A DNA stretch of 64,000 nucleotides from a virus: positions 36,683-100,682 of the IMG/VR virus record IMGVR_UViG_3300027057_000001; one strand, written 5' to 3'. Under the pieces are notes generated by a model that saw nothing but the letters and a program-made list of their open reading frames with translations, did no database searches and was not told the DNA's origin. Shown piece after piece: positions 3,366 to 47,865 of this stretch (its first letter is position 1; the number at the start of each line of letters is the position of its first letter). A program made the position numbers and the translations under genes.

Positions 3366-4964
3366 ATGAAAACCGCGAGTCAATTCGCAGAGGAAATCAG
3401 TGCCATCACGGCAGACCTTCCGGGTGACGACGGCGAGACCGCCGCGATCACACCGGCAGAGCCAGCCCCGGTGGCCGAAGAGCTTGCCGACTGGCGGGGA
3501 CCGCTTCAGGACATCCAGGTGCGCCTCCGCAGAATGATCCAGCAGGACATCGACAAGTTCATGGAGAGCGCCACGAAGATCCTCTCGGACGCCGAGAAGT
3601 CGGACTGGTCGCCCACTGTGGTCCAGAACTCCGTGGCCCGCTGGAGCCGCGACATCAACCGGGTCTACGCCGACTTCGTGAACAGCACGAAGGGGTTCCA
3701 GGGTCTCGTCAAGTCGATGGGCATCCCGACCCGCCGTCACAGCGGCAAGGGGAAGGCCCCCGGCAAGAAGGGCAAGATGAACTGGAAGGGCTTGTCCCAG
3801 ACCCAGTTGAAGAAGGAGGTTCAGCAGCAGGTCAAGCGCCTGTCGCAGGGCATCCACAGCCTAGCTGACGACGGTTCCTTCATGCTCCGCCAGATCGACC
3901 GTATCCTGAAGTACAAGGCCCCGAAGGACGAGACCGTGCGCGAGGAGATCGGCGCGCTGTTCCAGGACTTCGTGGACTTCCGCAACTCCTTCGGGTCGAA
4001 GGTGTGGGGTCCGTACAAGGGGCTCATCGGGCGGCTCGAAGCCATCCCGGCCAAGCCCATCACGAAGTACGGCAAGGAGTACGGCAAGGCCATGCGGAAG
4101 CGCCCATTGAAGACCATGCCGCCGACGCCGAGATTCGCGGCCAACGAGGACGCGCTGCCCATCGACTGCCCGGAGCTTCGCGAGGCCATCGAGCGCGACC
4201 GCCTGCGCGCCACGCGCGGCGTGCTGGGTGAGGACCAGGAGGAAGCAGCGGCGCTCATCGAGGACATCGAGGGCGAGCTTCTGGGCGAGATGGACGACGA
4301 CCCCGAGAAGGGCGTGGCCAGCAAGATGAAGGCGAAGGGGTACAAGTTCAAGGTGCTCCTGAAGAAGGGGGCACCGCTCTACACGAAGACCGAGAAGGGG
4401 GCCAAGGACGTCCAGAAGGACTACCCGGGCTCCAAGATCGTCGCCAACGAGAGCGAGGAGATCGACGACCCCGCCGTCATCGAGGCAGCCGAGCACGGGA
4501 GCCTCTTCGACTTCTTCGAGGACTTCGACAGCCTCTTCGACGAGGAGCCGCTGGACGAGGGGGCCAGCGACGACGCCCCTTTTCTGAGTGAGGCAACCGA
4601 GTTCGAGAAGGGTGTTCGCGTGGCTGATGGCCCGAGCCGACAGAAGATGGCCATCCAGCAGGTCTTCGGTCACATGCGGCTGAAGGGGAACGTCGAGCCA
4701 GGCCCAGGCGGGAAGTTCATGCACGGCGTGGCCAAGATTCCTGGCGGGCATCTGGAGTTCGACGCCGACCGCACGCGCCTGGCATGGACTGCCTTCGCCA
4801 ACGGAAGCATCGTGGACAAGGGCCACAGCCCCTACGGCGGCTCCATCAACCGCATGACCAAGCCCATCGCTGCGGCGATGAAGAAGGTGGCTGCGACGAC
4901 CGAGGGCAATGACCCTCTGAACGACTTCTTCGACGCCCAAGAGCGAAAGTCACTTTCGCTCTGA
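3366..4964 (+). CDS. Modular putative internal head protein (basic domains separated by acidic linkers)
   Basis: GGAGG RBS; N-terminus MKTASQFAEE resembles the T4 capsid-targeting peptide; several hydrophobic-x-E sites. Confidence 0.5.
   Translation: MKTASQFAEEISAITADLPGDDGETAAITPAEPAPVAEELADWRGPLQDIQVRLRRMIQQDIDKFMESATKILSDAEKSDWSPTVVQNSVARWSRDINRVYADFVNSTKGFQGLVKSMGIPTRRHSGKGKAPGKKGKMNWKGLSQTQLKKEVQQQVKRLSQGIHSLADDGSFMLRQIDRILKYKAPKDETVREEIGALFQDFVDFRNSFGSKVWGPYKGLIGRLEAIPAKPITKYGKEYGKAMRKRPLKTMPPTPRFAANEDALPIDCPELREAIERDRLRATRGVLGEDQEEAAALIEDIEGELLGEMDDDPEKGVASKMKAKGYKFKVLLKKGAPLYTKTEKGAKDVQKDYPGSKIVANESEEIDDPAVIEAAEHGSLFDFFEDFDSLFDEEPLDEGASDDAPFLSEATEFEKGVRVADGPSRQKMAIQQVFGHMRLKGNVEPGPGGKFMHGVAKIPGGHLEFDADRTRLAWTAFANGSIVDKGHSPYGGSINRMTKPIAAAMKKVAATTEGNDPLNDFFDAQERKSLSL
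4940..4962. repeat. Perfect palindrome, copy 1 (AGAGCGAAAGT-C-ACTTTCGCTCT)
   Basis: Read directly; the core recurs at 26452 and 47831. Confidence 0.95.
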
Positions 4965-4966
4965 TC

Positions 4967-4995
4967 TTGACCCATAGGCTGCCATTGTCCACAAT
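4967..4995 (+). promoter_or_regulatory. Sigma70-like promoter upstream of the terminase genes
   Basis: TTGACC-17 bp-CACAAT. Confidence 0.5.
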
Positions 4996-5004
4996 GGTAG
5001 TGGT

Positions 5005-5712
5005 ATGGGTGACGTAACCCCAATCCGAGGTGGTCGCATCCCGCTTGCACAGCGGATTTCGGACCTGCCCATCGTTAGCGAAGTGGACGACATGCTCCGC
5101 GAAGGGCTTTCTGCGCCCGACGTGGCCAAGCACATCCAGGAGACATTCGAGCTTCTGGCCGACGTCTCGCCCGACGTGCTTCGCAAGGCACTGAGCGAGA
5201 GGAAGAAGAACCTGCCTCCACCTCCACCTGACCCGGAACAGTGGCCAGCGGTCTACTCTCCCCCGGACACCGAGGTGGTGAACCATCCTGATGGAGCCCG
5301 ACCCCCTGGGGCGCTCGCGAAGGCGCAGTACCAGCAGGCCAAGCGCGGCATCAACGTGATGCTGGAGGCCGAGTGCCTGTACCTCGCGCAGCGCGACCGC
5401 ATCGACCGGCTCATCCACAGCGAGAACCGGACTGGCGAGCCCTACGAGGACATGCCTCGTGAAATGGGGACTGCGCTGGAGATGCTGAAGACGCACGCCA
5501 AGCTCGAAGAGCAGTACGGACCCGCCGTGGACCGGATGCGATTGAGCTTGGATGTTCAGGGTGACGCGGCAACTGGGCTGGGCGGAGCTATCGCAGCCGT
5601 GATGAAGAACCCAGAGAGCCGACACAAGGTGCTCTCGATGGTTCAGCGGTTCGCGAAGCTCGCTGCACCCCCTGTCATGGATGTGGAGGCCGAGCCTGTT
5701 GGTGGCGGCTGA
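5005..5712 (+). CDS. Probable terminase small subunit
   Basis: Directly upstream of and coupled to terL; HTH-like N-terminus (VDDMLREGLSAPDVAKHIQ) and helical C-terminus. Confidence 0.55.
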   Translation: MGDVTPIRGGRIPLAQRISDLPIVSEVDDMLREGLSAPDVAKHIQETFELLADVSPDVLRKALSERKKNLPPPPPDPEQWPAVYSPPDTEVVNHPDGARPPGALAKAQYQQAKRGINVMLEAECLYLAQRDRIDRLIHSENRTGEPYEDMPREMGTALEMLKTHAKLEEQYGPAVDRMRLSLDVQGDAATGLGGAIAAVMKNPESRHKVLSMVQRFAKLAAPPVMDVEAEPVGGG

Positions 5713-8700
5713 TGGCCATCGAAATCGTCGGTGGCCGACCTCGCTCCGTCCGCACCGAGAAGGAGTTGACCCAGGAGATCCTTGAATCGCTCGAAGCGAT
5801 GAGCGAAGAGGAGCGCCTGGCCTTCCTGTACTACCTGGACGAACTGGAGAAGGGGAACACCGACGTACTCGACGAGCACATCAAAGCCGAGTACATCGAG
5901 GAGCCCGTTGACCCGCTCACCTTCCTGCTCGACGAATACTACCTGGGACAGGTCGGCCAGCATATGTGGCCGAAGCTCCAAGAGGACTTCGTTGAGCTAT
6001 TCGAGGGCGACTACTCCGAGGCCATCCTGACCGGCTCACTGGGCTGGGGGAAGAGCTTCTTCGCGACGTGCGGGCTCGCCTACGTGCTCTACCAGATGTC
6101 GTGCCTGGCAAACCCACAGGAGGTCTACGGACTGGCCAGGGGCACGGGGCTCGCCGTCGCCATCCTGTCAGCTACGAGGGAGGCAGCCAGGCGCGTTCCG
6201 CTCGCGGAGTTGGGCTCGAAGCTCCAGTTGAGCCCCTACTTCAAGGAGAAGTGCCCCTACAAGATCGCTCAGACCATGTACGAGATCCGCTTCCCCACGA
6301 AGAAGATGATGGTGGTGGCGGGCTCGACCTCCAGCGCGGCTATCGGCACCAACGTCTTCAGCGGCTTCCTGGATGAGATGGCGTTCATGGGCGGCAGAAG
6401 GCAGATGGACAGGACCGGGCGTCTCGTGGAGGTGGATAAGAGCGAGGTGCTGACCAAGGCCATCGTGCGCCGGATGAAGTCGAGGTTCATGAAGTCAGGG
6501 AAGCTCCCTGGGCTGATGTTCCTGGTCTCCTCGAAGGAGAAGCCCGTCGCCTTCATCGAGCAGAAGATCGAAGAGGCCCGAGCAGGACAGGCCCCGGACG
6601 TCTTCGTGAGGGACTATTGCTTGACGGGGGACACCATCATCCCGCTTCTCGACGGGACGGAGAGGCGTCTCGATGATCTGTTCGCTGAGTTCGGCGGCAC
6701 CGACGAGCGATTCGAGGTCTATTCGTTCGACGTGTCGAGCGGTCGTATGGTGCCTGGCCGTGCGTTCAGGCCGAGGCTGACTGCCAGGGCCGAGGAGATT
6801 CTGGAGGTCGAGCTAGATAACGGCGAGGTGGTCAGGGCGACACCGTGGCACCCGTTCATGTTGAAGGATGGGACGTACAGGAGGGCTGACGAGCTTCAGC
6901 CAGGTGACTCGCTCATGCCCCTGTACCGAAGGCTGGATGACAAGGGGTACGAGGAGGTCGCGCAGCCGTGGTGGGGTGGGCGCTGGCAGAAGACGCACCA
7001 TATGGTGGCGAGGGCCAAGTTCGGGTCGTGGCCCCGTCGTGGGAGCGATGGCAAGCCAACGGTCATCCATCACAAGGGCTTCGACAAGCGCAATAACACG
7101 ACAGGGAACCTTCAGGTGAAGGAGTGGGACGAGCATCGTCGCATTCACACCGAGAATATGGAGACCTTGCTTCGCCATGTCAGGTCAGATGAGCATCGCA
7201 GGTTCGCATCCGAGCGAATGAGGGCTCTTCACCAGGACGAGGACTTTGCACGGGAGCGCGATAGGCGTGGTCGTGAGTTGTTGAACAGGCTGCGTGAAGA
7301 CGAGGGGTTCAGGGAGTGCCAAGCCAAGGCGGCGTCGAAGACGCTTTCGAGATTTCATCGCACAGACAGGGGGAGGACGAGGCAGTCTGAGAGAAGCCTG
7401 AAGAGGTGGGACGGCGAGCGCAAGATCGGCGGCGTGGGTGTCATTGTCGATGCGGCGAGGTGTGGTGAGACCATCACGTCTCTGGCCGAGAGGCTTGGGT
7501 GTTCACCGAGCGCCGTGAGTCAGCGTCTCAGGCGTGCTGGGATGCCGACCTATTCCAAGTTGAAGAGGGAGGCAGGACACGCGAGCCCAGGGAACCACAA
7601 GGTCGTCTCTGTCAGGGCCGGTGGTCGGAGCGATGTGTACGACCTTTCGGTGGAGGGGCTTGAAAACTTTGCCATCGGGAGCGGGGTTTTCGTCCATAAC
7701 TCGACCTGGGACGTCAAGCCACAGGAGAATTTCAGCGGCAAGACCTTCCAGATCGCGGTCGGAAACGAGACCGTGCGCTCGAAGATCGACCCGACAGACG
7801 AGGACAAGGAGTGGTACGAGGGCTCCGGGCTTCGGGTCATCGAGGCCCCAGAGGAGTACCGCCCCGACTTTGAGTCCGATCTGGAGGGTGCGCTCCGCGA
7901 CATCGCAGGCATCGCGACCGAGAGCACGAGCCTGTTCGTCCATCGGCGCGAGAAGATCGTGGAGGCCATCGACGAGAGCCTGAAGAGCCCAGTCGATGTC
8001 GAGGAGTGGATGAGCGGCGACCCGCTGGAGTTCTGGTGGGAGAGGGTGGCGATCCCCTTTGAGAGGCCCATTCCTGGCGGTTTTACAGAGAAGGCGTGGA
8101 GGCCCATCAGGCACCCACAGGCTGTGCGCTACGTCCACATCGACCCATCGCTGGTCGGAGACTGCGCCGGGCTCGTCATCAGCCACATCGCCGGGCACAC
8201 GGAGGTGACCCGGAGGGATGCTGGCGGCGAGTCGTACACGGAGGTGGCTCCGGTCATCGAGACGGACCTCCTGCTCAGGATCATTCCCCCGCCTGGGGAC
8301 GAGATCTTCCTGGGGGACATCAGGGGCATCGTCTACGAGTTCCAGGCCCACGGCTTCATCATCGCCTTCGCCTCACTGGACAGCTACCAGAGCGCGGACA
8401 CCAGGCAGCAGTTCAAGCAACGCGGCATCGAGTCAGAGGTGCTGTCGGTGGACAAGACGACGATCCCATACGAGTCAATGAAGACGGCCTTGTATGAGAA
8501 CCGTCTGCGGCTCCAAGACAACGTGACGCTCCAGAGGGAGCTTCGTGCGCTTCAGCGAGTGCAGAAGACCAAGGGCGTCATTCCGAAGTTCATGATCGAC
8601 CACCCGGCTCGTGGCTCGAAGGACATCGCTGACGGTCTGGCTGGCACCGTTCACAGCCTCATGACCAGGCAGCCGGGATTGCCGATGGCACCCATGATGT

Positions 8701-8858
8701 CCGAGCGAGACGCGATGACAGAGAAGCGAGACGACTCCTGGGTGACTGGCGGAAAGGTGATGGTCCCACCTTCGGCTGGTCAGCGAGGGGGTGGCCAGGG
8801 TATGGTTGGGCAGAAGGTGTCGAACAAGGATCTACCGATGCCGTTCACAAGGGGATAA
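5712..8858 (+). CDS. terL: Terminase large subunit containing an intein (about 687 aa after splicing)
   Basis: Walker A LTGSLGWGKS, Walker B FLDE, motif III FLVSS, RNase H-like nuclease motifs HIDPS, SLDSYQS, DHP..GSKDIAD; directly upstream of the portal. Confidence 0.92.
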   Translation: MAIEIVGGRPRSVRTEKELTQEILESLEAMSEEERLAFLYYLDELEKGNTDVLDEHIKAEYIEEPVDPLTFLLDEYYLGQVGQHMWPKLQEDFVELFEGDYSEAILTGSLGWGKSFFATCGLAYVLYQMSCLANPQEVYGLARGTGLAVAILSATREAARRVPLAELGSKLQLSPYFKEKCPYKIAQTMYEIRFPTKKMMVVAGSTSSAAIGTNVFSGFLDEMAFMGGRRQMDRTGRLVEVDKSEVLTKAIVRRMKSRFMKSGKLPGLMFLVSSKEKPVAFIEQKIEEARAGQAPDVFVRDYCLTGDTIIPLLDGTERRLDDLFAEFGGTDERFEVYSFDVSSGRMVPGRAFRPRLTARAEEILEVELDNGEVVRATPWHPFMLKDGTYRRADELQPGDSLMPLYRRLDDKGYEEVAQPWWGGRWQKTHHMVARAKFGSWPRRGSDGKPTVIHHKGFDKRNNTTGNLQVKEWDEHRRIHTENMETLLRHVRSDEHRRFASERMRALHQDEDFARERDRRGRELLNRLREDEGFRECQAKAASKTLSRFHRTDRGRTRQSERSLKRWDGERKIGGVGVIVDAARCGETITSLAERLGCSPSAVSQRLRRAGMPTYSKLKREAGHASPGNHKVVSVRAGGRSDVYDLSVEGLENFAIGSGVFVHNSTWDVKPQENFSGKTFQIAVGNETVRSKIDPTDEDKEWYEGSGLRVIEAPEEYRPDFESDLEGALRDIAGIATESTSLFVHRREKIVEAIDESLKSPVDVEEWMSGDPLEFWWERVAIPFERPIPGGFTEKAWRPIRHPQAVRYVHIDPSLVGDCAGLVISHIAGHTEVTRRDAGGESYTEVAPVIETDLLLRIIPPPGDEIFLGDIRGIVYEFQAHGFIIAFASLDSYQSADTRQQFKQRGIESEVLSVDKTTIPYESMKTALYENRLRLQDNVTLQRELRALQRVQKTKGVIPKFMIDHPARGSKDIADGLAGTVHSLMTRQPGLPMAPMMSERDAMTEKRDDSWVTGGKVMVPPSAGQRGGGQGMVGQKVSNKDLPMPFTRG
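6618..7700 (+). mobile_element. Intein (361 aa) with an HNH homing endonuclease
   Basis: Starts C-LTGDT, block B TPWHPF, ends VYDLSV...GVFVHN followed by Ser+1; internal VIHHKGFDKRNN...NL HNH motif. Confidence 0.93.
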
Positions 8859-8859
8859 C

Positions 8860-10641
8860 GTGGCAACACTCTGGGAAGGATTCACAGCGAACGTGGGCAA
8901 TGCCCTGCGCTCGTTCTTTGCCCGGACCCCTCAGAGGCAGGCGGCGGAGCTTCAGCGAGGCGGCACACCGGCAGTCTCGATGGCCGGGCTACCATACAAC
9001 CTGGTCACGCAGTTCGGCTACGATGCGCTCGCCAACTACCTCCGCATCGACCAAGACCTCCAGCAGCGCTACACCGACTACGAGGAGATGGACGAGTACC
9101 CCGAAATCAGTGTGGGGCTCGACATCTACGCCGACGACTCTACCAGCCCAGACCTGGACCGGGAGCAGGCGATCTGGGCAGTGAGCGAGGACAAGAGGAC
9201 CGCCGACGAACTGAACCACATGCTCCACAAGCAACTCCTCATCGAGGAAGACATCTGGGGCGTGGTCAGGACGCTGTGCAAGTACGGCAACGTCTTCGGT
9301 GAGTGCTTGGTGACCGACCAGGGGCTCGTGGGCATCAACTACCTCCCTCCGCCGACCACGCGGCGTGTCGAAGGCCCGCGCGGGCAACTCATCGGCTTCA
9401 TCCAGGACATCCGGGGCGAGTTCAACATCAGCCTGGAGGACTTCTACAAGCTCGCGGAGCAGCAGCAGGCGTACCGCCAGGGGCAGACAGACCGACAGGC
9501 GGCACCGGCTGCCATGGGTCGCAAGCCTGGCGAGTTGACCGTCTTCGAGGACTGGGAGTTGATTCACTGGCGACTCCGGGGCAAGCACCTGCGCTCCGTC
9601 TACGGGCACGCGGTCATCGACCCGGCTCGCTGGATATGGAAGCGGCTGGCGCTCCTCGAAGACGCCCTGCTCATCTACAAGCTGGAGCGCGCCCCTGCTC
9701 GCTACGCCTTCTACATCGACGTGGGCGAGCTTGACGCCGAGCGCGGCCTGGCGTTCGTCAACAAGGTCAAGAACAGCTTCACCCGCCAGAAGTTCGTCAA
9801 CCCCAACACCGGCAAACTGGACATGCGGTTCAACCCGCTGGCCATGGACGAGGACTTCTTCGTGCCGGTGCGGGCTGGCAAGCGGACGACCGAGATCGAC
9901 GTCATCAGCGGCCCGGACTATTCCGAGACCGAGACGCTGGAGTACCACCGGGACAAGCTCGTCAGCGCCATCAAAATCCCGAAGGTCTACATGGGGTATG
10001 GCGGCGAGAGCACGCGCAACGCCCTGTCCAGCGAGGACATCCGGTTCGCCCGCACGGTGATGCGGATTCAGCGCGTCACGAGGAGCGGATTCCGCCAGGC
10101 GTCTCGCGTCCATCTCATCGCCAAGGGCATAGACCCCAGGGCCGACTACGACATCAGGATGAACGTCCCGAGCCAGATTCTCGAACTGGCTCGCGTGGAG
10201 GTGATGAGCGCCACTGCCGATCTCGCCTCTCGCATGAAGGAGGACGTCGGCACGAGGTGGGTCCTGACGCACCTCTACAAGTTCTCGGAGGACGAAGCTG
10301 CTGCGGTCATGAAGGAGAAGAGCCAGGAAGAGCTTGACCGAGGCAAGCGCGAGGCCGACATCGAGAAGATGAGGATGGAGGGCATGTCACCGGAAGAGCA
10401 GCGAGATGCCATCCTGAAGGGGGATCTCGATGTCCGTCTGTCGAAGCTCATGACTGCTGTCTCTCGGCGCGACTGGCGGCGCGACTTCGAGCGCCCCCGC
10501 CACGTCGAAAAAAGGGCCGAGGAGAAGCTGTCCCGTGTCCTCAAGGAGAACCGCGATACAACCCGCCGCCTGAAGGAGCTTGGGGGCCTCATGATGGAGA
10601 TTCGTGGGGCACTCAGGGCTTCCGCTGCGCCTCCCATGTGA
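8860..10641 (+). CDS. Portal protein, T4 gp20-like
   Basis: EDALLIYKLERAPARYAFYIDVGEL, MDEDFFVPVR, EDIRFARTV motifs match gp20; GTG start just after the terL stop. Confidence 0.93.
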   Translation: MATLWEGFTANVGNALRSFFARTPQRQAAELQRGGTPAVSMAGLPYNLVTQFGYDALANYLRIDQDLQQRYTDYEEMDEYPEISVGLDIYADDSTSPDLDREQAIWAVSEDKRTADELNHMLHKQLLIEEDIWGVVRTLCKYGNVFGECLVTDQGLVGINYLPPPTTRRVEGPRGQLIGFIQDIRGEFNISLEDFYKLAEQQQAYRQGQTDRQAAPAAMGRKPGELTVFEDWELIHWRLRGKHLRSVYGHAVIDPARWIWKRLALLEDALLIYKLERAPARYAFYIDVGELDAERGLAFVNKVKNSFTRQKFVNPNTGKLDMRFNPLAMDEDFFVPVRAGKRTTEIDVISGPDYSETETLEYHRDKLVSAIKIPKVYMGYGGESTRNALSSEDIRFARTVMRIQRVTRSGFRQASRVHLIAKGIDPRADYDIRMNVPSQILELARVEVMSATADLASRMKEDVGTRWVLTHLYKFSEDEAAAVMKEKSQEELDRGKREADIEKMRMEGMSPEEQRDAILKGDLDVRLSKLMTAVSRRDWRRDFERPRHVEKRAEEKLSRVLKENRDTTRRLKELGGLMMEIRGALRASAAPPM

Positions 10642-10671
10642 TAGGATGCCTTTGGTGATGGGAACAGTGGC

Positions 10672-11668: not shown

Positions 11669-11677
11669 GAGGTCAGC

Positions 11678-13720
11678 ATGAGGCACCCTCACAACGCAAC
11701 TGTCCGACCGCTCGACGAAGAGCTTGCCGAGATGGGGCTCAACCCCGACAAGGTGCTCTCCGAGATCGACCGCAACACCGCGATGCTCGAAGGTGAGTCT
11801 CCGCTGCTCGATCCAGCGGGTCTACCCGAAGGCTCCGAGGACGTCCCCCGCTCTCTGGCCCAGTACGGCTCGACCCTGCTGGACGAGAAGAAGAAGTGTA
11901 AGAAGAAGGAGGACGACGACGAGGACGACGACGACTCCGACGACGATGGACCCGAAGGCGACGAGTACGAGGGCATGGGCGAGGGCCAGGACCCGGAACC
12001 CGCTCCCGAGCCAGTCTCCGAGGACGTCATCGTCGAGAAGGAGTGGATCGCCAAGGCGATCAAGGACCCGGGCCGCGTGCGGAAGTACCTGGGCGTGCCA
12101 GAGGGCGAGAAGATCCCGATGGCGAAGATCGAAGCCGCCATCGAGAAGCTGAAGGGCCAGCCCGACAGCGACGAGAAGAAGAGTCTCATCGGTGCCCTGG
12201 TGCTCGCGAAGCGCCTGAAGAGCGGCATCGGCGAGGATGTGACCGAGGACCAGATCTCCGACCTTCTGTACCTCATCGACGAGGGCTGGGAACTCGACGA
12301 GGCTGGTCTCGGCATCGTGAAGAAGGCGCGCGGCGCGGCTGCTCGCCTGGCCAAGCGCATGAGGCACCGGGCCTACCTGAAGTCTCGCGGGGCCATGAAG
12401 CTCGCCGCGAAGATCTACCGGAAGAAGTTCAAGCGGAAGATCAAGCGCCGCGAGAAGATGAAGCTGCGCCGCTTCGGTCGCGAGGGGTTGGCGAAGCTCC
12501 ACAAGATGGGGAAGCGCGTCGTCCAGCGCGTGACCGGGAAGAAGAAGAAGAAGGAGTGGGCCGACACCATCGCCAGTCTCCAAGAGGAGATGGGCGTGAT
12601 GGAGGAGACCTTCGGCATCCAGGAGCCCATCGACGAGGACATCGAGGAGCGCGAATACTCCCCCACGGTGGAGGCCCTTCTCAACGCGGCAGAGACCGCG
12701 ATGTACCTCGGCGAGGTCTTCGACGCCATGGGCGACGAAGCGGGCCAGGTTCTCCTGAAGCTCTCCGACAAGGCCGTGGACCTCGCGGACGTCATCGAGG
12801 CCAATGAGAACGGCGAGCCGACCGAGGAGCAGGAGAAGCACCTGGACACGGTGCTCGATGCCGTGATCAAGGCCCTGGGAGAGTACGAGGACCGGGGCTC
12901 CCCCTCTCTGAGCGAGGCCATCGGCATGGCGCTCGTCGCCGAGGGCGTGGGCACCTGGGACGAACTGGTCGAGTACAAGATCCCGACACCTGCCGAGATG
13001 CAAGCTCGCATCGCTGGCGGGAAGAAGGCGCACCAGAAGACTGGCCACAGGGTTCCGGCTGGCAAGACGGTCTCTCCCGACCCCACGGTCGCCGGGAAGT
13101 ACCTGAAGGCCATCAACATGGCCATGCAGAAGCGCGAGCCTGCCGCAGCGATGAAGGCTGCCGAGAAGGTGCTGAAGAAGCACAAGGTCATGGACGCCAA
13201 GGGGCTGCCGGTCACGCGCATCGACACGATGACCGACGTGCTGCGGACGGTGTTCTACCTCTCGCAGATCACCGGCCTGAAGGCCCCGGCCTGGATGTAC
13301 GCCGGGAAGAAGAAGCCATGGTTCGTGGCCAAGGGCGACGACGACCAGCCCGGCATGGCGAAGACCGACGCGAAGCTCGTCGGCGCGCTGAAGGCCCTGG
13401 GCGCTCCCGCTGGCCTGCTGAAGGCCATGGGTGAGGAGTTCGAGCACGTCACCGACTTCGTCTTCTCTCTCGAAGAGGCGGGGATGGGGGCGCAATCGGT
13501 GGTGCCCGGTCTGGACCCGGACCAGGAGCGCATCTTCGACACCATCGTGCTGATGGCGACGAACGACGGCGCGTCCTACAAGAAACGGGACGCCAAGGGT
13601 GCGGTGAAGAGGGCCGCGACTCAGCACAAGCGGGACGCGGCGAGCGACCTCGCTTTCGACCTGAAGAAGGTCGAGCCCTACGCCACCAAAGAGGTGGCCC
13701 GGCGCTGGGCTGCGGCGTGA
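11678..13720 (+). CDS. Prohead core/internal protein, modular (includes a gp68-like basic tract)
   Basis: Occupies the position of T4 gp67/68; alternating poly-acidic and K/R-rich segments; many L/I-x-E sites. Confidence 0.55.
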   Translation: MRHPHNATVRPLDEELAEMGLNPDKVLSEIDRNTAMLEGESPLLDPAGLPEGSEDVPRSLAQYGSTLLDEKKKCKKKEDDDEDDDDSDDDGPEGDEYEGMGEGQDPEPAPEPVSEDVIVEKEWIAKAIKDPGRVRKYLGVPEGEKIPMAKIEAAIEKLKGQPDSDEKKSLIGALVLAKRLKSGIGEDVTEDQISDLLYLIDEGWELDEAGLGIVKKARGAAARLAKRMRHRAYLKSRGAMKLAAKIYRKKFKRKIKRREKMKLRRFGREGLAKLHKMGKRVVQRVTGKKKKKEWADTIASLQEEMGVMEETFGIQEPIDEDIEEREYSPTVEALLNAAETAMYLGEVFDAMGDEAGQVLLKLSDKAVDLADVIEANENGEPTEEQEKHLDTVLDAVIKALGEYEDRGSPSLSEAIGMALVAEGVGTWDELVEYKIPTPAEMQARIAGGKKAHQKTGHRVPAGKTVSPDPTVAGKYLKAINMAMQKREPAAAMKAAEKVLKKHKVMDAKGLPVTRIDTMTDVLRTVFYLSQITGLKAPAWMYAGKKKPWFVAKGDDDQPGMAKTDAKLVGALKALGAPAGLLKAMGEEFEHVTDFVFSLEEAGMGAQSVVPGLDPDQERIFDTIVLMATNDGASYKKRDAKGAVKRAATQHKRDAASDLAFDLKKVEPYATKEVARRWAAA

Positions 13721-23670: not shown

Positions 23671-26442
23671 ATGGCAGAACGCTTGCACCCTGGCGTGTAC
23701 GTGGAGGAAAAGCGCAGCGGGCTTGCTCCGATTCAGGGCGTCTCGACGTCGAACATGGGCATCGTCGGCTTCGCCGAGCGCGGCCCGAGCGACGAGGCCA
23801 CGCTGGTCACGAGCTACCCGAGCTTCGAGCGCACCTTCGGGACCTTCATCGCCGCCTCGCAGATGCCGACCCACGTCTTCGCCTTCTTCGCCAACGGTGG
23901 CGCGAGGGCATACATCGTCCGCGTGACCGGCGCGGGCTCGACCAAGGCCACCGGCTACATCACGAGCGACTGGACCGAGGAGACCATCGCCACAGGCGAC
24001 GGCTCGACGGCCTCCATGGACAGCGCTGCTCCGACCATTGGCGAGACGGACATCGATCACGTCCCCGAGATCGAGCCGTCCTCCGTCGCGGTGAGCATCT
24101 ACCAGACCCCAGGAGCACTCGGAGCGGCTGGTGATGCCATCGACGCGACCGCAGCCCCGGTATGCACGCTGACGCTCCCGGCTGGCACCCCGCTCTACGC
24201 AGCGATGGTGACCTGGGGCGCAAGCCTCACCCTGGCTGGATGCACGTCGGCTCCAAATGATGGAACCTTCCCAATCACGGCGGTGGACACGGTCAACAAC
24301 GTCGTCACCTTTACGAATGCTGCTGGCGTGACAGAGCCTTTGGTTCTTGGTGTCTCGTCCTGGGCCATCAGCGTCGTCGGTGAGGCTGGCGACCTGAGCC
24401 CTGTCCCGGCTGGCGTGGTGACGGAGTTCGCGGGCAAGCTCGGCCCGTCCTCCACCAACATGAAGATCATCCCCGGGACCGTGACGATCAACGACTCGAC
24501 GGCACCTGGGCAAACCTACTCCGACACCGGCAAGGACGGCGTGCTCTACGAGGCCGGTGCTCCTGCGGTTCCGGCTGGGTTCGTGGACTACGAGACCGGC
24601 CTGTTCTCGCTCACGGCGTCGGTGGCACCGCTCCTGCCCGGCAACATCACCTACGACTACACGCCCGCTGGCCCCCAGGTGGAGATCACCGACGACGGCG
24701 CTGGCGCGTGGAACGCCCTGGGCGTGACGGCCATCGCTGGGGCGCTGGACTACACCACGGGCGTCTGGTCCATGGGTCCGCTCCCGCAGGCCCCAGCCGA
24801 CAGCCTGCCGGTGGATGTGGCGTACACCCAGCAGGTCTGGGAGTACAACCCCATCAGCGAGGGCACCTGGGGCAACTACGTGCGAGTGGACGTCCGAGGC
24901 GACGAGGACTACTACACGCGGGCCACGGCGAGCTTCACCCGCTACGACGCGCTGGTCTACCTGTCGGAGGACCAGGGCACGACCTTCGACCTCGCCGAGA
25001 CCTACGAAGACCTTTCGCTGACAGACCCGACCGATTCGCGGTACATCGGCGACATCCTCAACAACGAGGGCGTCGGGTCCAGCCTGATCGATCTCGTGGA
25101 GCCGTCCAACGAAGACGTCGCCCCGCGAAACCTGTCGGGCTACCAGAGGACCAGGGCCGTGGGGGCTGGCAACGGCACCCAGGCGCAATTCGGAAGCTCT
25201 GGCGCGACACCGACCATCCCGGCCCCCTTCGTGTGTGCCCCGCTGGAGAGCCCGGTGCAGCCCGGCTCCGTGACCATCAACTACACCGACCTCAACGGGG
25301 TGGCCAGGACCGTCACGGACGACGGCAATGGGAACCTCGTCGGTGATGTCTTCGGCGGCGCGGCGGCTGGCTTCAACGAGATCGACTACACCTCTGGCGA
25401 GTTCGCCTTCGAGTCCTCGGCGGACGACGGGGCGACCTCTGGCGCGGTGGGCAACTTCACCCAGGCTGGCAACGCCTCGGTGCCGACCGTCAGCTACTAC
25501 GTCACGCCTTCGGACACCGAGACGGCGGACCAGGCCAGCGGCGGCACGGACGGCGCGGCGCTCACGCGCAACGAACTGACCGACCCGGCGCTCCAGACCG
25601 ACCGCAAGGGCATGTACGCCCTGCTCTCGACCGACGAGCTTCAGAACGTCACCATCCCGGACGCGGCTGGCGACGTCACCATGAGCGTGGACCAGGTGAC
25701 GGAGGCCGAGCGCAACGAGAAGTGGTTCATCATTCTCGCGACTCCGCCCGGCTACACGCCGACACAGGCCCGCGACTGGCGCATCAACACGCTGGGCATC
25801 ACGTCCAGCTACGGTGCGCTGTACTACCCCTACATCCAGATCGCGGACCCGGTGACCGACCTCCCGGCCAACGTGCCGCCAGGCGGTCACATCGCGGGCG
25901 TCTACGCGCGCACGGACGCGAGCAGGAGCGTCGGCAAGGCTCCCGCTGGGACGGTGGACGGCAGGCTGCTCTTCGCCACGGGCGTCGAGCGCAAGATGGA
26001 GTTCGCCGAGATCGACGTGCTCCATCCCAACCAGGTCAACGCCATCATCAACACCCCGCAGACCGGGCTGGTCGTCTGGGGTGCGCGGACGTTGGAGCGC
26101 CCGCCGAGCGACTTCCGCTACGTCCACACGCGGAGGCTGTTCAACTTCCTGAAGGCGTCGATCTTCAACAGCACCCACGGCTTCGTCTTCGAGAACGTGG
26201 GGCCTCCCCTGTGGTCGAAGATCCGGCTGTCGGTGGAGAGCTTCCTGCTGACGCAGTTCCAGCAAGGGCTCTTCAAGGGGACGACCCCAGCAGAGGCTTA
26301 CGCGGTCATCTGCGACGAGACCAACAACCCCCAGAACGTGCAGGATTCGGGCACGGTCATCTGTGACATCTACGTCGCGCCGAACGTGCCAGGCGAGTTC
26401 ATCGTCTTCCGCATCCAGCAGAAGGTGGCCCAGGCGGCGTAG
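23671..26442 (+). CDS. Contractile tail sheath with inserted beta domains
   Basis: HPGVYVEE, FFANGG, ALYYP, VPPGGHIAGVYARTD, KAPAG, WGARTL, ICDETNN. Confidence 0.95.
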   Translation: MAERLHPGVYVEEKRSGLAPIQGVSTSNMGIVGFAERGPSDEATLVTSYPSFERTFGTFIAASQMPTHVFAFFANGGARAYIVRVTGAGSTKATGYITSDWTEETIATGDGSTASMDSAAPTIGETDIDHVPEIEPSSVAVSIYQTPGALGAAGDAIDATAAPVCTLTLPAGTPLYAAMVTWGASLTLAGCTSAPNDGTFPITAVDTVNNVVTFTNAAGVTEPLVLGVSSWAISVVGEAGDLSPVPAGVVTEFAGKLGPSSTNMKIIPGTVTINDSTAPGQTYSDTGKDGVLYEAGAPAVPAGFVDYETGLFSLTASVAPLLPGNITYDYTPAGPQVEITDDGAGAWNALGVTAIAGALDYTTGVWSMGPLPQAPADSLPVDVAYTQQVWEYNPISEGTWGNYVRVDVRGDEDYYTRATASFTRYDALVYLSEDQGTTFDLAETYEDLSLTDPTDSRYIGDILNNEGVGSSLIDLVEPSNEDVAPRNLSGYQRTRAVGAGNGTQAQFGSSGATPTIPAPFVCAPLESPVQPGSVTINYTDLNGVARTVTDDGNGNLVGDVFGGAAAGFNEIDYTSGEFAFESSADDGATSGAVGNFTQAGNASVPTVSYYVTPSDTETADQASGGTDGAALTRNELTDPALQTDRKGMYALLSTDELQNVTIPDAAGDVTMSVDQVTEAERNEKWFIILATPPGYTPTQARDWRINTLGITSSYGALYYPYIQIADPVTDLPANVPPGGHIAGVYARTDASRSVGKAPAGTVDGRLLFATGVERKMEFAEIDVLHPNQVNAIINTPQTGLVVWGARTLERPPSDFRYVHTRRLFNFLKASIFNSTHGFVFENVGPPLWSKIRLSVESFLLTQFQQGLFKGTTPAEAYAVICDETNNPQNVQDSGTVICDIYVAPNVPGEFIVFRIQQKVAQAA

Positions 26443-26451: not shown

Positions 26452-26472
26452 GAGCGAAAGTCACTTTCGCTC
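26452..26472. repeat. Perfect palindrome, copy 2 (GAGCGAAAGT-C-ACTTTCGCTC)
   Basis: Read directly; intergenic after the sheath gene. Confidence 0.95.
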
Positions 26473-26487: not shown

Positions 26488-26910
26488 ATGGACGCAACGA
26501 TCACGAACCTGAGCGCCGAGCGGGTCTTCATCTCTGGCCCGCAACTGGACCTCGCTCCCACGGGAGATCCCGATGGCAAGGACGTCCAGGTGTGGCCCGA
26601 CATCACGGTCAACGACATCGACAGCCACGTCAGGCTGAAGGAGTTGGTCGTGGCTGGCACGGTCTCCATCCAGATGGACCCGGACAGCTTCGACGCGGCG
26701 CTGGCGACACGGGGCGCACTCAACTTCGCGGCGCTCCCCGTCTACCTGTTCGCCGACCTCCCGACCGGCTACAACGGTCGTGTGGCCTTCGTGTCGAACG
26801 GCCTGAAGGGTGGCGAGGTTTCGCCTGGCGGGACCGGAGTTCCGGCGTACTACGATGCGGTCGCCGGGGCGTGGCTCAACTTCTTCGACAACCTGCCGAC
26901 CGCCGCCTAG
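26488..26910 (+). CDS. Small structural/decoration protein
   Basis: C-terminal LPVY..ADLP..GRVAFVSNG..GTGVPAYYD fibre-like motif. Confidence 0.5.
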   Translation: MDATITNLSAERVFISGPQLDLAPTGDPDGKDVQVWPDITVNDIDSHVRLKELVVAGTVSIQMDPDSFDAALATRGALNFAALPVYLFADLPTGYNGRVAFVSNGLKGGEVSPGGTGVPAYYDAVAGAWLNFFDNLPTAA

Positions 26911-32355: not shown

Positions 32356-32841
32356 ATGGGTCGGACGCCAGACGCTCACGACGGACCTGCCTTCGAGGAA
32401 GGCACATACTACGAGAGCACGGGCGTTGCCTCGACCCCGGGAGAGGTCCGCTACACCGGCACACGGTTCAGCTATGTGGACGCGACCGGGGAGTACGACC
32501 CAAGGGCTGGCGGCGGGCTCTCTGCCGAGCAGCACAAGACGCTCAGGCAACTCATCCACTTCATCGACGAGGGTCCTGCCGAGGGGTTCGCCAGCGGGTC
32601 CTACAAGGAGATCTTGCCGTCAGCCAACCCATTCCCGACATCGGTCATATGGTGGGAGTCAAGCTCCAAGCTGAAGAAGATTGTCGAGAAGCTGATCACC
32701 TGGACCGGGGCGTTCGCGACGACAATCGAGTGGAACATCTACGACACGGACGGCTCAACGAAGCTGGCAACCGTCTCTGACGCTATCTCCTACTCCGGGG
32801 CATTCGAGACGACCAGGACGAGGACGATCACGGTGTACTGA
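32356..32841 (+). CDS. Hypothetical structural protein
   Basis: GAGG RBS; beta-rich. Confidence 0.55.
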   Translation: MGRTPDAHDGPAFEEGTYYESTGVASTPGEVRYTGTRFSYVDATGEYDPRAGGGLSAEQHKTLRQLIHFIDEGPAEGFASGSYKEILPSANPFPTSVIWWESSSKLKKIVEKLITWTGAFATTIEWNIYDTDGSTKLATVSDAISYSGAFETTRTRTITVY

Positions 32842-34805: not shown

Positions 34806-35425
34806 GCCACTACGACTACCTGAACACCGACTTCCCAAATGACATCTTCAACGAGGACAAGCTGGAGCAGCAGGTCGCCGCCGACGAGACGATCACGGCC
34901 ACGCTGACCTACATCCACAGCGCAGAAGACGTGGAGACGGGGCTCGTCACCGTCAGCTTCTATTTCGACGTGGACCTCTCGACGGAGGAACAGGCGGCTC
35001 TCGACACCATCGTGGCGAACCATGACGGACAGCCGCCCATTGGCTACAAGTACCACGCGACAAGCTCCCTGGTGGAGGCCAAGGCCATCGTCGATTCGGA
35101 CGCCTGGGACTACATGGCCAGCGCGGTCACGACGCCCGACTTCTTCATGGCCGACCTGACGAGGTTCATCGGGCGCGTCATCGGGGCCTACCGCGCCGTG
35201 GGCGATGGGGCAGAGCTTCGCGTGCTCGAAGATGATGAGAGCAAGATCCTGGGCTCATTCACCATGACGGACACCCAGGGGGAGTGGTCCACCATGCAGT
35301 TCTTCTCCTCGATGCTTCCGACGAGTGGGACACACGAGTACATCCTTCAGGGACGGCTCAACGGGGCAACGGAGGCCGAGATTCGGGGGACCTCGATGAC
35401 CATTCTGGAGGCGGTGGTCGAATGA
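34802..35425 (+). CDS. Fibre-associated hypothetical protein
   Basis: ATGA overlap with GGAGG RBS; LSTEEQAALDTIVANH motif. Confidence 0.55.
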   Translation: MSHYDYLNTDFPNDIFNEDKLEQQVAADETITATLTYIHSAEDVETGLVTVSFYFDVDLSTEEQAALDTIVANHDGQPPIGYKYHATSSLVEAKAIVDSDAWDYMASAVTTPDFFMADLTRFIGRVIGAYRAVGDGAELRVLEDDESKILGSFTMTDTQGEWSTMQFFSSMLPTSGTHEYILQGRLNGATEAEIRGTSMTILEAVVE

Positions 35426-38294: not shown

Positions 38295-38459
38295 ATGGCC
38301 AAGGGAAATCGACATCACACGCGACCTCGTGGAACACGCTCCTTCTGGGCCATCCAGCAACTCTCTCGCGCCCGGCAGAAGGGTGACGCCAGAGCGGCCC
38401 GGAAGCGGGCTCGTCAGAATGACCGCAAAATCATCCAGGAGAGTGTTGACAACTGCTAA
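38295..38459 (+). CDS. 54-aa Arg-rich protein (absent from the ORF track)
   Basis: MAKGNRHHTRPRGTRSFWAIQQLSRARQKGDARAARKRARQNDRKIIQESVDNC; fills the gap exactly. Confidence 0.6.
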   Translation: MAKGNRHHTRPRGTRSFWAIQQLSRARQKGDARAARKRARQNDRKIIQESVDNC

Positions 38460-38496
38460 TTACACCTTAGATTGAGAGAGAAGGACGGAGGGCACC
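38446..38496 (+). promoter_or_regulatory. Early-type promoter+RBS cassette 2
   Basis: TTGACA-16-TAGATT ... CGGAGGGCACC-ATG. Confidence 0.7.
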
Positions 38497-44887: not shown

Positions 44888-44890
44888 GGC

Positions 44891-45223: not shown

Positions 45224-46729
45224 GTGGGAGTCGTAGACCCATCGGGAATCCAGATTTCCGTCGTCGTGAAGACGGCCAGGGGGACGGAGTTCCCTCTCTG
45301 GATGGGTGGGGCTCGCTCCGGGGAAGGTGGCACAGGAGAGTCGTTGTTTCTCGATGCGAACGTGGGCTTCCAAGACCTGCCCATTGTGAGCAGCGTGAAC
45401 ATCGAAATGATGATGAGTTACATGGCCACCTGCACGGTGGAATTGTCGGCTCCATATGACCTTGGTCTGGCCCTGCTGGACAGCGAACTTTTCATCGTCG
45501 GCAACGTCATCATCGTGCAGGTCGGATACCCGCGCATCGGGCTCTTCCTGCCGAAGCTCGCCTGCATGGCGATCAAGCCGTCCATCACCATCAACCCGGA
45601 CGACGGGCTCACGGCGACCATCAACGGTCGTGCCGGGTGCTTCGCGAGCACGCGCGGGCGCACATCTCGCGTGTGGGAGAACACGTCGGTAGTCAAGGTG
45701 GCGCAGGAGCTTGCAAACCTGCCACACAACAGGTGGGACGTGACGTTCCCACAGAGACTCAGGTCTGCGTCAACAATTGAGGAAGTCGCTGCAATAGCCG
45801 AGGCAGAGGGCGTGGAGGCGGCGCAGGCAGCGGCCACAACGGTTGACCCGCTCTATGGCAAAAGGCCGCGCATCAGCCAGCCCAACCGCACCGACTGGGA
45901 TCAATTCACCCATATGTGTCGCGTAGCTGGGTGCAGAGCCATGGTGAGGCCGCAGACCCAAGGTGATGGCAGGGCACAGATTCTCGTCGAGCGCGAGTCT
46001 GACGTGGCCACCAGGGAGCCGGTTTACACGCTGACGTCCAGGGGGCAGATCGACATGATCTCACCGAATGGACGCTTCCCGCTTCTGAGCTTCGAGAGCG
46101 AGGCGGAGAACTTGTGGTTGTCGGCTGGCTCCGACCGTGTTGTGAGCGACGACATCGACTCCGCGACTGGAGATCCAGTCAGCGCGGAGGCGAACCAGGA
46201 TACGGTGGAAGACGAGACGCCGAATGCCGTGACTGAGACTGGCGGCACTGGCAATCAGGACACGCCAGAGGAGAACCTGGCCCTGAGAGCCGACGCCGCT
46301 GATGGGGGAGACCAGCGTGTTGCAGCCCCGGCGAACTCGCTGGAGCGCACTCCGGGAGAAGCTGTGGGGCAGGTGGCGAGGGAGGAAGGCGAGCGTGGCG
46401 GTGGCGTCCATGCCACGGTCTCGACCATCGGCAACCCGGTAGCCTTCCCCAACGACCGCATCAGGATCGAGAACCTGGGACCGTTTAGCGGCAACTACGA
46501 GATCGAGGGCATGAGCCATCAGGTGGCCGAGGGGGAGTGGACGACGACCATGCGGCTCATCCGGCGCGGGACCTTCGGGGACAACTGGATCGCCGAGATC
46601 ATTCGCCGCCAGACCGACAACCCCCAGGACCAAGAGCCAGAGGACCAGCCTGAGATCGGCCAGGACGCCCAGAGCGGTGGTGCGGTCACGGCAGAGGCAT
46701 TCGATCCCTTCTCGGTGGAGGGCATCTGA
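45224..46729 (+). CDS. Baseplate hub (gp27/late-control-D-like)
   Basis: VQVGY, ISQPNRTDW, TIGNP...IENLGPFSGNYEIEGMSH..WTT. Confidence 0.8.
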   Translation: MGVVDPSGIQISVVVKTARGTEFPLWMGGARSGEGGTGESLFLDANVGFQDLPIVSSVNIEMMMSYMATCTVELSAPYDLGLALLDSELFIVGNVIIVQVGYPRIGLFLPKLACMAIKPSITINPDDGLTATINGRAGCFASTRGRTSRVWENTSVVKVAQELANLPHNRWDVTFPQRLRSASTIEEVAAIAEAEGVEAAQAAATTVDPLYGKRPRISQPNRTDWDQFTHMCRVAGCRAMVRPQTQGDGRAQILVERESDVATREPVYTLTSRGQIDMISPNGRFPLLSFESEAENLWLSAGSDRVVSDDIDSATGDPVSAEANQDTVEDETPNAVTETGGTGNQDTPEENLALRADAADGGDQRVAAPANSLERTPGEAVGQVAREEGERGGGVHATVSTIGNPVAFPNDRIRIENLGPFSGNYEIEGMSHQVAEGEWTTTMRLIRRGTFGDNWIAEIIRRQTDNPQDQEPEDQPEIGQDAQSGGAVTAEAFDPFSVEGI

Positions 46730-47523
46730 TGCTGATCATCGGCAGGCAGAGGCAGCCAAGGAGGCGTGCGCCAAGCTCGGTCGAGTTGTCCGGGACTGGC
46801 TTCCGCTTCTTCTTCGACCGGATCGTCCAGTACGGGCTCGAATACTTCCAGCTTTACTACGGGACCTACAAGGCGCGCGTGGTGAGCAACGAAGACCCGG
46901 TCAACGAGGGGCAGCCAGACCCCTTCGGTCGGCTCGTGGTCCGCATCCCGGCTGTCGGCGACGGAGAGGACGTGCGGCGCATCGCGTGGCCCATCGCTCC
47001 CGTGGCCGGGAGCAGCTTCGGCTTCAAGAGCTTGCCCCCGGCTGGGAGCAACGTCTACGTCGTCTTCGAGCGTGGTCAGGTGGACGCCCCGCTGTGGATG
47101 GGCGGCTGGTGGCCGAGGGACGCCATCCCGACCGAGTTCAACAAGACCGAGACCCACTACTGGATCACCCCTGGCGGGCACCAGGTCATTCTCGACGAGC
47201 AGGATGGCGGGCAGGTGGTCCGCATTCGCCACATGGACGAGGAGACGCGGCTGGAGTTCGACAACGACGGCAACGTCTTCATCGTCAACAGGGCGAACGC
47301 GAAGATTCACATCGGCGACGGGGCCGACACGCTGACGCCGACGCAGCCAGGCGTGCTGGGGGAGAAGCTGAAGGGGCTGATGGAGGAACTGATCGACGCG
47401 ATCAAGGCGATGACGGTGCCGACGCCCGCTGGGCCATCGGGAACCGCCATCAACTTCGCGCAGTTCGATGCGGTGAAGGGCCGACTTCAGGAGATGCTGT
47501 CGGAGACGGTGGACCTGAAGTGA
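46729..47523 (+). CDS. Baseplate spike, gp5/gpV-like OB fold
   Basis: YKARVVSNEDP..GRLVVRIP, LPPAGSNVYVVFERG..PLWMG, TPGGHQVILDE. Confidence 0.85.
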   Translation: MLIIGRQRQPRRRAPSSVELSGTGFRFFFDRIVQYGLEYFQLYYGTYKARVVSNEDPVNEGQPDPFGRLVVRIPAVGDGEDVRRIAWPIAPVAGSSFGFKSLPPAGSNVYVVFERGQVDAPLWMGGWWPRDAIPTEFNKTETHYWITPGGHQVILDEQDGGQVVRIRHMDEETRLEFDNDGNVFIVNRANAKIHIGDGADTLTPTQPGVLGEKLKGLMEELIDAIKAMTVPTPAGPSGTAINFAQFDAVKGRLQEMLSETVDLK

Positions 47524-47525
47524 CC

Positions 47526-47777
47526 CTACTTGGGCCACACTGCGGCCATCGTGGGCCACTTGCCCTGGGCACCGGAGAGTTCCCAGGCCCAGTCGTGGAC
47601 CGTGTAGGCCCACACGAGCCCGCCGTGGCGGAGGTCGATGACCTCGGTACAGGACCGCTCCGGGGCGTAGACCCGGCACTTGCGGCACTGACGAGCGTGC
47701 GCGATGGAGGCGTAGTGCTCGCCGCAGGAGCACTCGTAGGGGTATTCGGTTCCGTCGATGGTGGTGATATTGGTCAT
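47526..47777 (-). CDS. Small Cys-rich protein, antisense to the structural operon
   Basis: CSCG...CRKC..C; has its own promoter and RBS; fills the gap between + strand genes. Confidence 0.75.
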   Translation of the reverse strand: MTNITTIDGTEYPYECSCGEHYASIAHARQCRKCRVYAPERSCTEVIDLRHGGLVWAYTVHDWAWELSGAQGKWPTMAAVWPK

Positions 47778-47829
47778 GGTGTCCTCCGCTGTCCTGCACA
47801 GAACATAGGCACTGATTTGCGATTGTCAA
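47778..47829 (-). promoter_or_regulatory. Early-type promoter+RBS cassette 3
   Basis: Reverse complement reads TTGACA-16-TATGTT ... CGGAGGACACC-ATG. Confidence 0.7.
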
Positions 47830-47830
47830 C

Positions 47831-47849
47831 AGCGAAAGTGACTTTCGCT
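47831..47849. repeat. Perfect palindrome, copy 3 (AGCGAAAGT-G-ACTTTCGCT)
   Basis: Read directly; lies 1 bp from the -35 of cassette 3. Confidence 0.95.
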
Positions 47850-47865
47850 CTGAAGGAGAAGGTGA

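Follow-up and report, generated by a model that had tools for sequence, protein, structure and literature searches.

What is a perfect palindrome doing at widely separated places of a phage genome, and which molecule reads it? The question arises from a 64,000-nt stretch of DNA from an uncultured tailed phage (the window), which comprises bases 36683-100682 of the IMG/VR viral contig IMGVR_UViG_3300027057_000001 (100,682 bp, rated ~53% complete) and in which the 19-bp palindrome AGCGAAAGT[C/G]ACTTTCGCT is present in three perfect copies. The answer that we favour is that these copies, together with others on the contig, are dispersed recognition sites, origin-like or nick sites, for the phage's own Rep protein, a predicted HUH endonuclease; we put the probability of this reading at roughly 0.45. 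That the palindrome is a protein site of some kind, read at the level of DNA, is probable. Positions refer to the window unless the contig is named.

Copies of the palindrome in the window and the contig

The window was scanned with the pattern AGCGAAAGTSACTTTCGCT, and the following matches, none of them with a mismatch, were obtained, against 0.01 expected by chance:

4942..4960, no strand, palindrome copy 1, AGCGAAAGTCACTTTCGCT, dyad extending to 4940-4962
26453..26471, no strand, palindrome copy 2, AGCGAAAGTCACTTTCGCT, dyad symmetry 26452-26472
47831..47849, no strand, palindrome copy 3, AGCGAAAGTGACTTTCGCT, inside the baseplate gene block

The centres of the copies are at 4951, 26462 and 47840, and perfect dyad symmetry is longer in copies 1 and 2, where it spans 23 bp and 21 bp. 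The original prediction, made from the letters of the window, had described these three perfect copies, the CTGA that directly follows each of them on the 3′ side, and their immediate surroundings, and all of this was borne out by the sequence. Copy 1 lies within the end of a coding sequence, overlapping the stop codon TGA (4962-4964) of the open reading frame (ORF) 3366-4964, and its 23-bp form ends at 4962, 4 bp upstream of a promoter-like site that starts at 4967. Copy 2 occupies an intergenic stretch of 45 bp, with the tail sheath gene (23671-26442) on one side and the putative tail tube gene (26488-26910) on the other. Copies 2 and 3 precede ribosome-binding sites, each being 4 nt upstream of a Shine-Dalgarno (SD) sequence, which is GGAGA for copy 2. 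Copy 3 stands between a minus-strand promoter of the early type, from whose -35 it is separated by 1 bp, and the SD AGGAG (47854-47858) of ORF 47866-48351. The two promoters concerned are:

4967..4995, + strand, sigma-70-like promoter site TTGACC-17-CACAAT, ahead of ORF 5005-5712 and the large terminase gene
47802..47829, - strand, sigma-70-like promoter TTGACA-16-TATGTT, driving an ORF of 83 amino acids on the minus strand (47526-47777)

Relatives have kept the promoter site at 4967..4995. Its -10 is overlapped by a second, small palindrome, CCATTGTCCACAATGG (4982-4997), which is also found in the relatives L014, L015 and G007; because of this conservation it may be a separate operator.

When the whole contig was scanned, six perfect copies and one degenerate copy (22320, with two mismatches in the left arm) were found:

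contig 2382, 8176, 22320, 29443, 41624, 63135 and 84513, copies of the palindrome

The gaps between them are 5794, 14144, 7123, 12181, 21511 and 21378 bp. A period of about 21.4 kb had been proposed from the window, with further copies foreseen ~16.5 kb before it and near 69 kb. No copy was found at the former place in the scan of the whole contig, the latter place falls beyond the contig end, and a strict periodicity is refuted by the remaining gaps (5.8, 7.1, 12.2 and 14.1 kb). We regard a true ~21.4-kb periodic ruler for genome organisation or packaging as extremely improbable: two gaps as equal as those of the window would arise by chance with P = 0.003, and three of the six contig gaps measure 21.3-21.5 kb when the degenerate copy is ignored, but the relatives, whose mean gaps are 8-13 kb, likewise show no fixed period. 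What survives the loss of periodicity is over-dispersion, as the copies are more evenly spaced than chance. The gap coefficient of variation in the contig is 0.45 versus 0.80 for random placement (P = 0.05; P = 0.06 when copies are restricted to gene boundaries), and the gaps vary less than under random placement in each of the seven related genomes tested, including those termed G005 (P = 0.005) and G006 (P < 5e-5).

All seven contig copies lie at gene boundaries. Three of them sit 4 nt before an SD, three are followed within 1-11 bp by a sigma-70-like -35, which in one case is on the other strand, one lies between the convergent genes of Rep and a helicase, and copy 2382 is flanked by two divergent early promoters. 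Three copies have C at the centre and the other four have G, irrespective of the direction of the genes. Since a dyad of 19-23 bp is hard to encode and 90% of the genome is coding, such dyads end up in gaps of 30-45 bp and hence beside SDs and promoters; a role of the sites in expression is possible besides this effect of placement. The genome is not rich in hairpins, the contig having 14 with a stem of at least 8 bp versus 10-21 in shuffled sequences, and the palindrome family makes up six of the nine distinct hairpins at gene boundaries. Other, unrelated perfect hairpins at gene boundaries are located at contig 12878-12899, contig 35205-35230 and window 10169-10193, the first two directly before SDs (CCATAGCA..TGCTATGG and ACCCATTCT..AGAATGGGT).

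The palindrome in close and distant relatives

The exact motif was found in no other IMG/VR contig, and relatives were therefore sought through proteins, homologues of the tail sheath being used to fetch related genomes. The related contigs obtained by these protein searches have a GC content of 49-65%, and their amino-acid identity is ~80%. In close relatives, the palindrome recurs at the positions that it has in this contig:

before the terminase promoter, in the sheath/tube gap and in the baseplate block, positions kept
before the gene for a protein of 177 amino acids, before the early promoter at contig 22350 and at the rep end, further positions kept

In close relatives, both the outer arms (AGCGAA/TTCGCT) and the 7 bp between them stay constant, and the inner 7 nt are genome-specific; copies of the lineage that includes G002 and L084 have AGTGAA/TTCACT instead. 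Gain and loss of copies was also seen among close relatives. G007 retains both promoters that flank copy 2382 but lacks the copy itself. In G001 one additional copy lies within a gene, and the G001 copy at 32630 has no counterpart at the corresponding place of this contig.

More distant lineages were found to have different palindromes in an equivalent role:

L086 (Rep 56% identical), GTGCAAGCGACTTGCAC, two copies
G005 (148 kb), GGGCAAT[TG/CA]ATTGCCC, 11 copies, an SD following most of them at 4-5 nt, that of the tail tube gene included
L012, AAGGGCAA-N5-TTGCCCTT, two copies
G006 (complete, 191,623 bp), GGCAGTCGACTGCC, 20 perfect and four one-mismatch copies, ~every 8 kb
G010, CCGGCA-N6-TGCCGG, a looser form of the G006 word, eight copies
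G008 (complete, 186 kb), TGTACTSAGTACA, four perfect and six one-mismatch copies against ~0.4 expected
G009, TGGCCCNNGGGCCA, seven copies

In L086, one copy follows the rep stop at a distance of 20 nt, with an SD immediately after it, and the other has an early promoter on either side; this phage has copies in corresponding settings, at its own rep stop and next to early promoters. A hairpin at the sheath-tube junction is lacking in some relatives. In G006, 14 of the 24 copies are within ORFs, by rough gene calls, and occupy all three frames. All copies change together between lineages, which argues for a trans-acting reader that recognises sequence, and the exact copies in coding sequence in three frames of G006 argue that the DNA itself is what is read. 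The CCTCGG palindromes of L011 were rejected as coding repeats of a tail-fibre-like gene. Two over-represented 17-mers were also set aside, that of G010 as a tandem coding repeat and that of G008 as an early promoter word. The 14-bp word GCGCAGGATCCTAC was absent from all genomes examined.

The Rep protein and the copy in its gene

Contig copy 8176 overlaps the stop codon of rep, which is convergent with the gene of a UvrD/PcrA-like helicase; both are core genes of the phage family.

contig 6963-8186, outside the window, rep gene (Rep_1-like HUH endonuclease), start probably at 6963

The Rep homologues share an invariant histidine in GxVHxH/N, an invariant Y-x-x-K and clusters of zinc-binding cysteines. 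Pfam matches of the family members (Rep_1, Zn_Tnp_IS91 and REP_ORF2-G2P) are all below threshold; for Rep_1, the homologues score 22.6-31.9 bits and the protein of this phage 18.9 bits, against a curated cut-off of 33.2. The AlphaFold model of Rep has a mean predicted local distance difference test score of 87.5, and its best structural match is the Rep encoded by ORF119 of SIRV1 (PDB 2x3g, Z 8.4). Matches at Z 5-6 include parvovirus NS1, the Reps of vientovirus, circovirus, geminivirus and adeno-associated virus, the Helitron transposase, RAYT and RepB, interspersed with unrelated ferredoxin-like folds; the RAYT with a bound REP hairpin (4er8) scores Z 5.0, a general match to the HUH fold. 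Nothing was found in a PDB sequence search with the Rep profile. Judged by its motifs and its predicted model, Rep is an HUH endonuclease of the rolling-circle type, having the HUH motif, the tyrosine and the features of the HUH fold.

A copy of the respective palindrome is located in or at rep in four of the five lineages with a defined palindrome, and its position within the protein differs each time:

lineage of this phage, basic C-terminal tail of Rep
G005, variable loop before the catalytic tyrosine
G006 and G010, AVDCR peptide
G008, segment before the HUH motif

Furthermore, the metagenome loci L083, L085 and L045 have a copy at the end of the rep ORF, and in L086, L095 and L084 a copy follows 20 to 270 bp after rep. 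The 27 gene families present in at least four of the five lineages were compared in this respect. The rep family ranked first, with a copy in four of five lineages, and no other family reached four; for 24 of the 27, a copy was found in 0 or 1 lineage. At a frequency of ~10% per genome, the chance of four in five is ~5e-4 for one family, ~0.01 over 27 families and 0.05 over ~100 families.

At the rep copy of this contig (contig 8140-8194) and of L083, the left arm is preceded by direct half-site repeats (AAGCGAA, three times). These repeats also encode the Lys/Arg-rich tail of Rep, and they could be iteron-like or a mere result of coding.

DNA site or RNA hairpin

The palindrome had been proposed to be either a site for a dimeric DNA-binding protein or an RNA hairpin signal. 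As far as the former proposal is concerned, the part that stands is a two-fold-symmetric, sequence-specific site: the arms are fixed, their spacing is constant, all copies of a lineage change in concert, a relative has coding copies in three frames, and the sense strand has no wobble bias. The binders that had been named, ORF 2051 and the small terminase, did not hold up, as nothing links either of them to the sites. An identity as a parS- or matS-like element failed as well, since the sequence is neither and no protein with the ParB_N domain was found in this contig or in one complete relative (G008).

The RNA proposal deserves to be weighed, since all seven copies stand at gene boundaries, two of them at a gene end before a promoter. 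It takes the copies as hairpins between cistrons, with a stem of 8-10 bp and a 3-nt loop, that stand just before SDs or after gene ends and act as transcript stabiliser, processing site or partial terminator, perhaps read by a phage RNA-binding protein. With about -12 to -16 kcal/mol the fold would be stable, and it does not involve the SD. In G005, L012 and L086, too, an SD follows the palindrome after 4-5 nt, the CTG on the 3′ side runs in the same direction as the genes, and the tail tube gene, which is highly expressed, is flanked by copies in three of four lineages. However, a U-tract is lacking, the hairpin being followed by CTGA, and the terminator scan did not pick up the sites and showed no excess, so that an intrinsic (Rho-independent) terminator was rejected. 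Rfam gave no match either. A plain structural hairpin would need neither identical sequences nor concerted change between lineages, and it fits poorly with the sites inside ORFs of G006 in all three frames. In imperfect copies, G-U and A-C mispairs on the sense strand are equal in number (4 to 4), and the variant copies of G006, G008 and this contig mostly alter one arm without compensation. Moreover, the orientation of the central base is unrelated to that of the genes, and two copies, 2382 among them, stand between divergent promoters and precede both neighbouring transcription starts. An RNA hairpin signal is thus possible but less likely than a DNA site, and we consider it improbable.

A possible operator for another regulator

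A reader at DNA level could also be a dimeric phage regulator other than Rep, which would bind the duplex dyad at a network of operators, in the manner of the 12 KorB operators of plasmid RK2, and modulate or insulate transcription units. The form of the element is consistent with this, as the dyad is perfect, its half-sites are conserved, the spacer between them is always 7 bp and the central base is free to vary, while copies change in concert within a lineage and variants alter one arm without compensation. So are some of its locations, since three of the seven copies abut a sigma-70-like -35 and two are flanked by divergent early promoters. The distances from dyad to -35 are 1, 6 or 11 bp, however, so that the sites are not on one face of the helix, and three copies leave no room for a promoter ahead of the next gene. 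A candidate regulator is also missing: most neighbours of the sites gave no Pfam, PHROG or NCBIfam match, and no ParB_N protein is present in this contig or the complete genome G008. An operator network also leaves unexplained why rep has a copy within the gene, at varied places, in four lineages. We take it as a serious rival, although on the whole an unlikely one. Repeats of the same form in Cluster O mycobacteriophages have been predicted to bind a dimeric protein (PMC4351075), which is in line with an operator.

Particular regulators and sites were considered and rejected. The palindrome is unrelated in sequence to parS (TGTTNCACGTGAAACA). The ParB_N domain (PF02195) had no match in this partial contig or in G008, one in G005 and a weak one in G006; ParB was rejected as the reader because of its absence from the complete genome G008. 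Mycobacteriophage stoperators are asymmetric sites of 13-14 bp that have one orientation to transcription and are read by the repressor in temperate phages, whereas the present site is a palindrome whose central base has no set orientation. No repressor was found among the annotated neighbours of the sites, a result that does not stem from a systematic search for repressor or integrase genes.

Two separate families of sites were seen in the distant relatives. G006 (L051-L060) has five copies of GTTTCACGTGAAAC, the core of canonical bacterial parS, one of them inside rep, and G005 (L028-L035) has three copies of a second palindrome, AAAGATCTCAAGTTGAGATCTTT:

G006 50278, 83876, 126799, 140582 and 165446, parS-core copies
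G005 20627, 70195 and 103432, second palindrome family

As one AAAGATCTCAAGTTGAGATCTTT copy is inside an ORF with a ParB_N domain (102626-103840), it may belong to a separate ParB-parS-like pair.

How Rep might use the sites

With the copies taken as sites of the phage's own Rep, the protein may dock on the dyad, in the form of a duplex or of an extruded hairpin, and would nick there or load the helicase. Each copy would then be an origin-like or nick site, similar to the origin within the initiator gene of rolling-circle replicons. A further step, which we hold to be doubtful, is nick-primed replication from multiple origins in these myoviruses of ~190 kb with 10-25 roughly even, lineage-specific palindromes, programmed nicks like those of T5 being an alternative. 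Rep would nick each palindrome or load the PcrA-like helicase, the lattice of sites would serve to replicate or mark the DNA, and the master copy kept inside rep would mean that Rep acts in cis.

Several observations weigh against Rep as the reader. Known HUH nick sites lack symmetry and mostly include a conserved loop or flanking sequence, whereas the present dyad is perfect, as would rather be expected for a dimeric protein that binds duplex DNA, and no conserved nick motif was recognisable in it. Known systems of this kind have one origin per replicon, whereas seven copies were found in this half genome and 24 in the complete G006; many active nick sites on one replicon would lead to termination at the next site or to double-strand breaks. 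The rule of a copy in rep is not without exception either, since the nearest copies of G009 are ~300 bp and ~700 bp from rep and none is inside it, and the tail tube gene ranks second among the gene families, being flanked by a copy in three of four lineages. It should also be mentioned that genes in the relatives were called with a rough caller based on GC3. The copies placed 4-5 nt before SDs in this phage, G005, L012 and L086 could point to a role in expression. Finally, the 3′ flank C-T-G is conserved at 19 of 21 positions in this phage and its 5′ mirror at only 8 of 21, so that the element appears slightly directional, which a simple symmetric site does not need.

Comparison with known systems

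In rolling-circle replicons such as the Rep_1 plasmids pC194 and pUB110, phiX174 (gene A) and phage P2 (gene A), the origin is in or beside the initiator gene. The present phage is similar in having an HUH initiator with a catalytic tyrosine, an inverted-repeat site in or at the end of its own gene and a helicase partner of the UvrD/PcrA type. It differs in that 7-24 copies are distributed over a linear-mapped myovirus genome of ~190 kb in place of a single origin, and in that its site is a perfect dyad at which nicking is only proposed. Many palindrome centres read T/C-G-A, a faint likeness to the pC194/phiX174 nick site CTTG/ATA, which was not counted as evidence.

The best structural match of Rep leads to a second comparison. 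SIRV1 ORF119 is likewise an HUH Rep encoded by a large double-stranded DNA virus and not by a small replicon, but SIRV1 is an archaeal rod-shaped virus, and its Rep site is in the terminal repeats and not a dispersed set. In number and form, the copies resemble the KorB operators of plasmid RK2, a 13-bp palindrome with a central G/C in 12 dispersed copies. Both palindromes have an odd length, a central S that is not fixed, a dozen or so scattered copies and varied distances to promoters; however, no protein of the ParB/KorB family was found in this contig or in one complete relative.

Dispersed dyad repeats have been described for Cluster O mycobacteriophages, where the 17-bp repeat TGTTCGG-N3-CCGAACA has 34 copies in Corndog; no function was assigned to it, and a dimeric binder was predicted (PMC4351075). 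These repeats share with the present ones a lineage-specific inverted repeat with invariant arms and a variable centre, a dispersed and partly intragenic placement, and an orientation unlinked to transcription. The likeness is one of form only, as neither the sequences nor the phages, which in Cluster O are siphoviruses of Mycobacterium, are related; the Cluster O copies are also packed more densely and distributed unevenly, and the paper on them reports no connection with a Rep gene (PMC4351075).

The bacterial REP elements and their RAYT transposases (PMC2817692, PMC3479197) resemble the phage system in that each species or lineage has its own intergenic palindromes, together with a partner gene for an HUH enzyme that is present in single copy. 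By analogy, the phage copies might be selfish, REP-like miniature palindromes that are spread by the HUH protein and serve no purpose for the phage itself. Each lineage has its own palindrome, which accompanies the HUH gene, copies have been gained or lost among close relatives (2382, which is not in G007, and the G001 copy 32630), and copies resemble additions of 20-25 bp to intergenic gaps that are otherwise short. Most places are nevertheless kept in close relatives, the spacing is more even than random and unlike the drift of selfish copies, and the copies within coding sequence of G006 are exact. The enzymes differ too: RAYT belongs to the Y1 family of IS200/IS605, whereas the phage protein is Rep_1-like with zinc fingers, its sequence matching Rep_1, Zn_Tnp_IS91 and REP_ORF2-G2P and not Y1_Tnp. 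REPs are imperfect, carry a GTAG head, number in the hundreds and flank the RAYT gene, whereas the phage palindrome has no GTAG-like head and stands as a single copy inside rep, which is not flanked by inverted copies. We therefore treat selfish spread as a minor rival with a low probability.

No phage with a set of palindromes linked to Rep came up in word searches of the literature. Dispersed dyad repeats of phages were already known from Cluster O, without an identified binder or function. The present repeats become testable through a candidate reader (the HUH Rep beside a PcrA-like helicase), a rule of a copy in rep that holds across lineages, and a spacing that is more even than chance. 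If Rep does nick or load at the sites, a phage of 190 kb would start or organise its replication from many programmed sites, and rolling-circle initiators would extend from small replicons to very large phages. The lineage-specific pairs of site and protein would then provide a natural set of orthogonal DNA-protein recognition pairs.

The phage and its other features

The phage is large, uncultured and tailed, with 63% GC, and was marked as a myovirus because a tail sheath gene is present. Its complete relatives measure 186 and 192 kb and have direct terminal repeats. No close cultured relative was found; the sheath has only distant matches, and Rep has none in the GenBank phage set. For most of the proteins adjoining the sites, searches of Pfam, PHROGs and NCBIfam gave nothing. 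Besides tape measure, gpV-like and gp25-like baseplate genes, the following genes were assigned:

5712..8858, + strand, large terminase gene, 1048 amino acids
23671..26442, + strand, tail sheath gene
26488..26910, + strand, putative tail tube gene, called from position and conservation, without a Pfam or PHROG match

The large terminase matches other terminases in two pieces that cover only ~58% of the protein, and the best-matching terminase, from a Listeria phage, carries an intein; the gene in the window is therefore probably interrupted by an intein too.

The minus-strand promoter beside copy 3 (47802..47829) is a member of a family of standard cassettes of early promoter and leader, which consist of TGTTGACAA, 16-17 nt, TTAGATT and then GGACGGAGG ahead of the start codon:

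38446-38473, + strand, early promoter/leader cassette
47829-47802, - strand, early promoter/leader cassette
contig 22350, + strand, early promoter/leader cassette
contig 2322, - strand, early promoter/leader cassette
contig 2483, + strand, early promoter/leader cassette

The cassettes drive small genes, some of which are within the late structural block, and the leader word CGGAGGACACCATG has seven occurrences in the contig.

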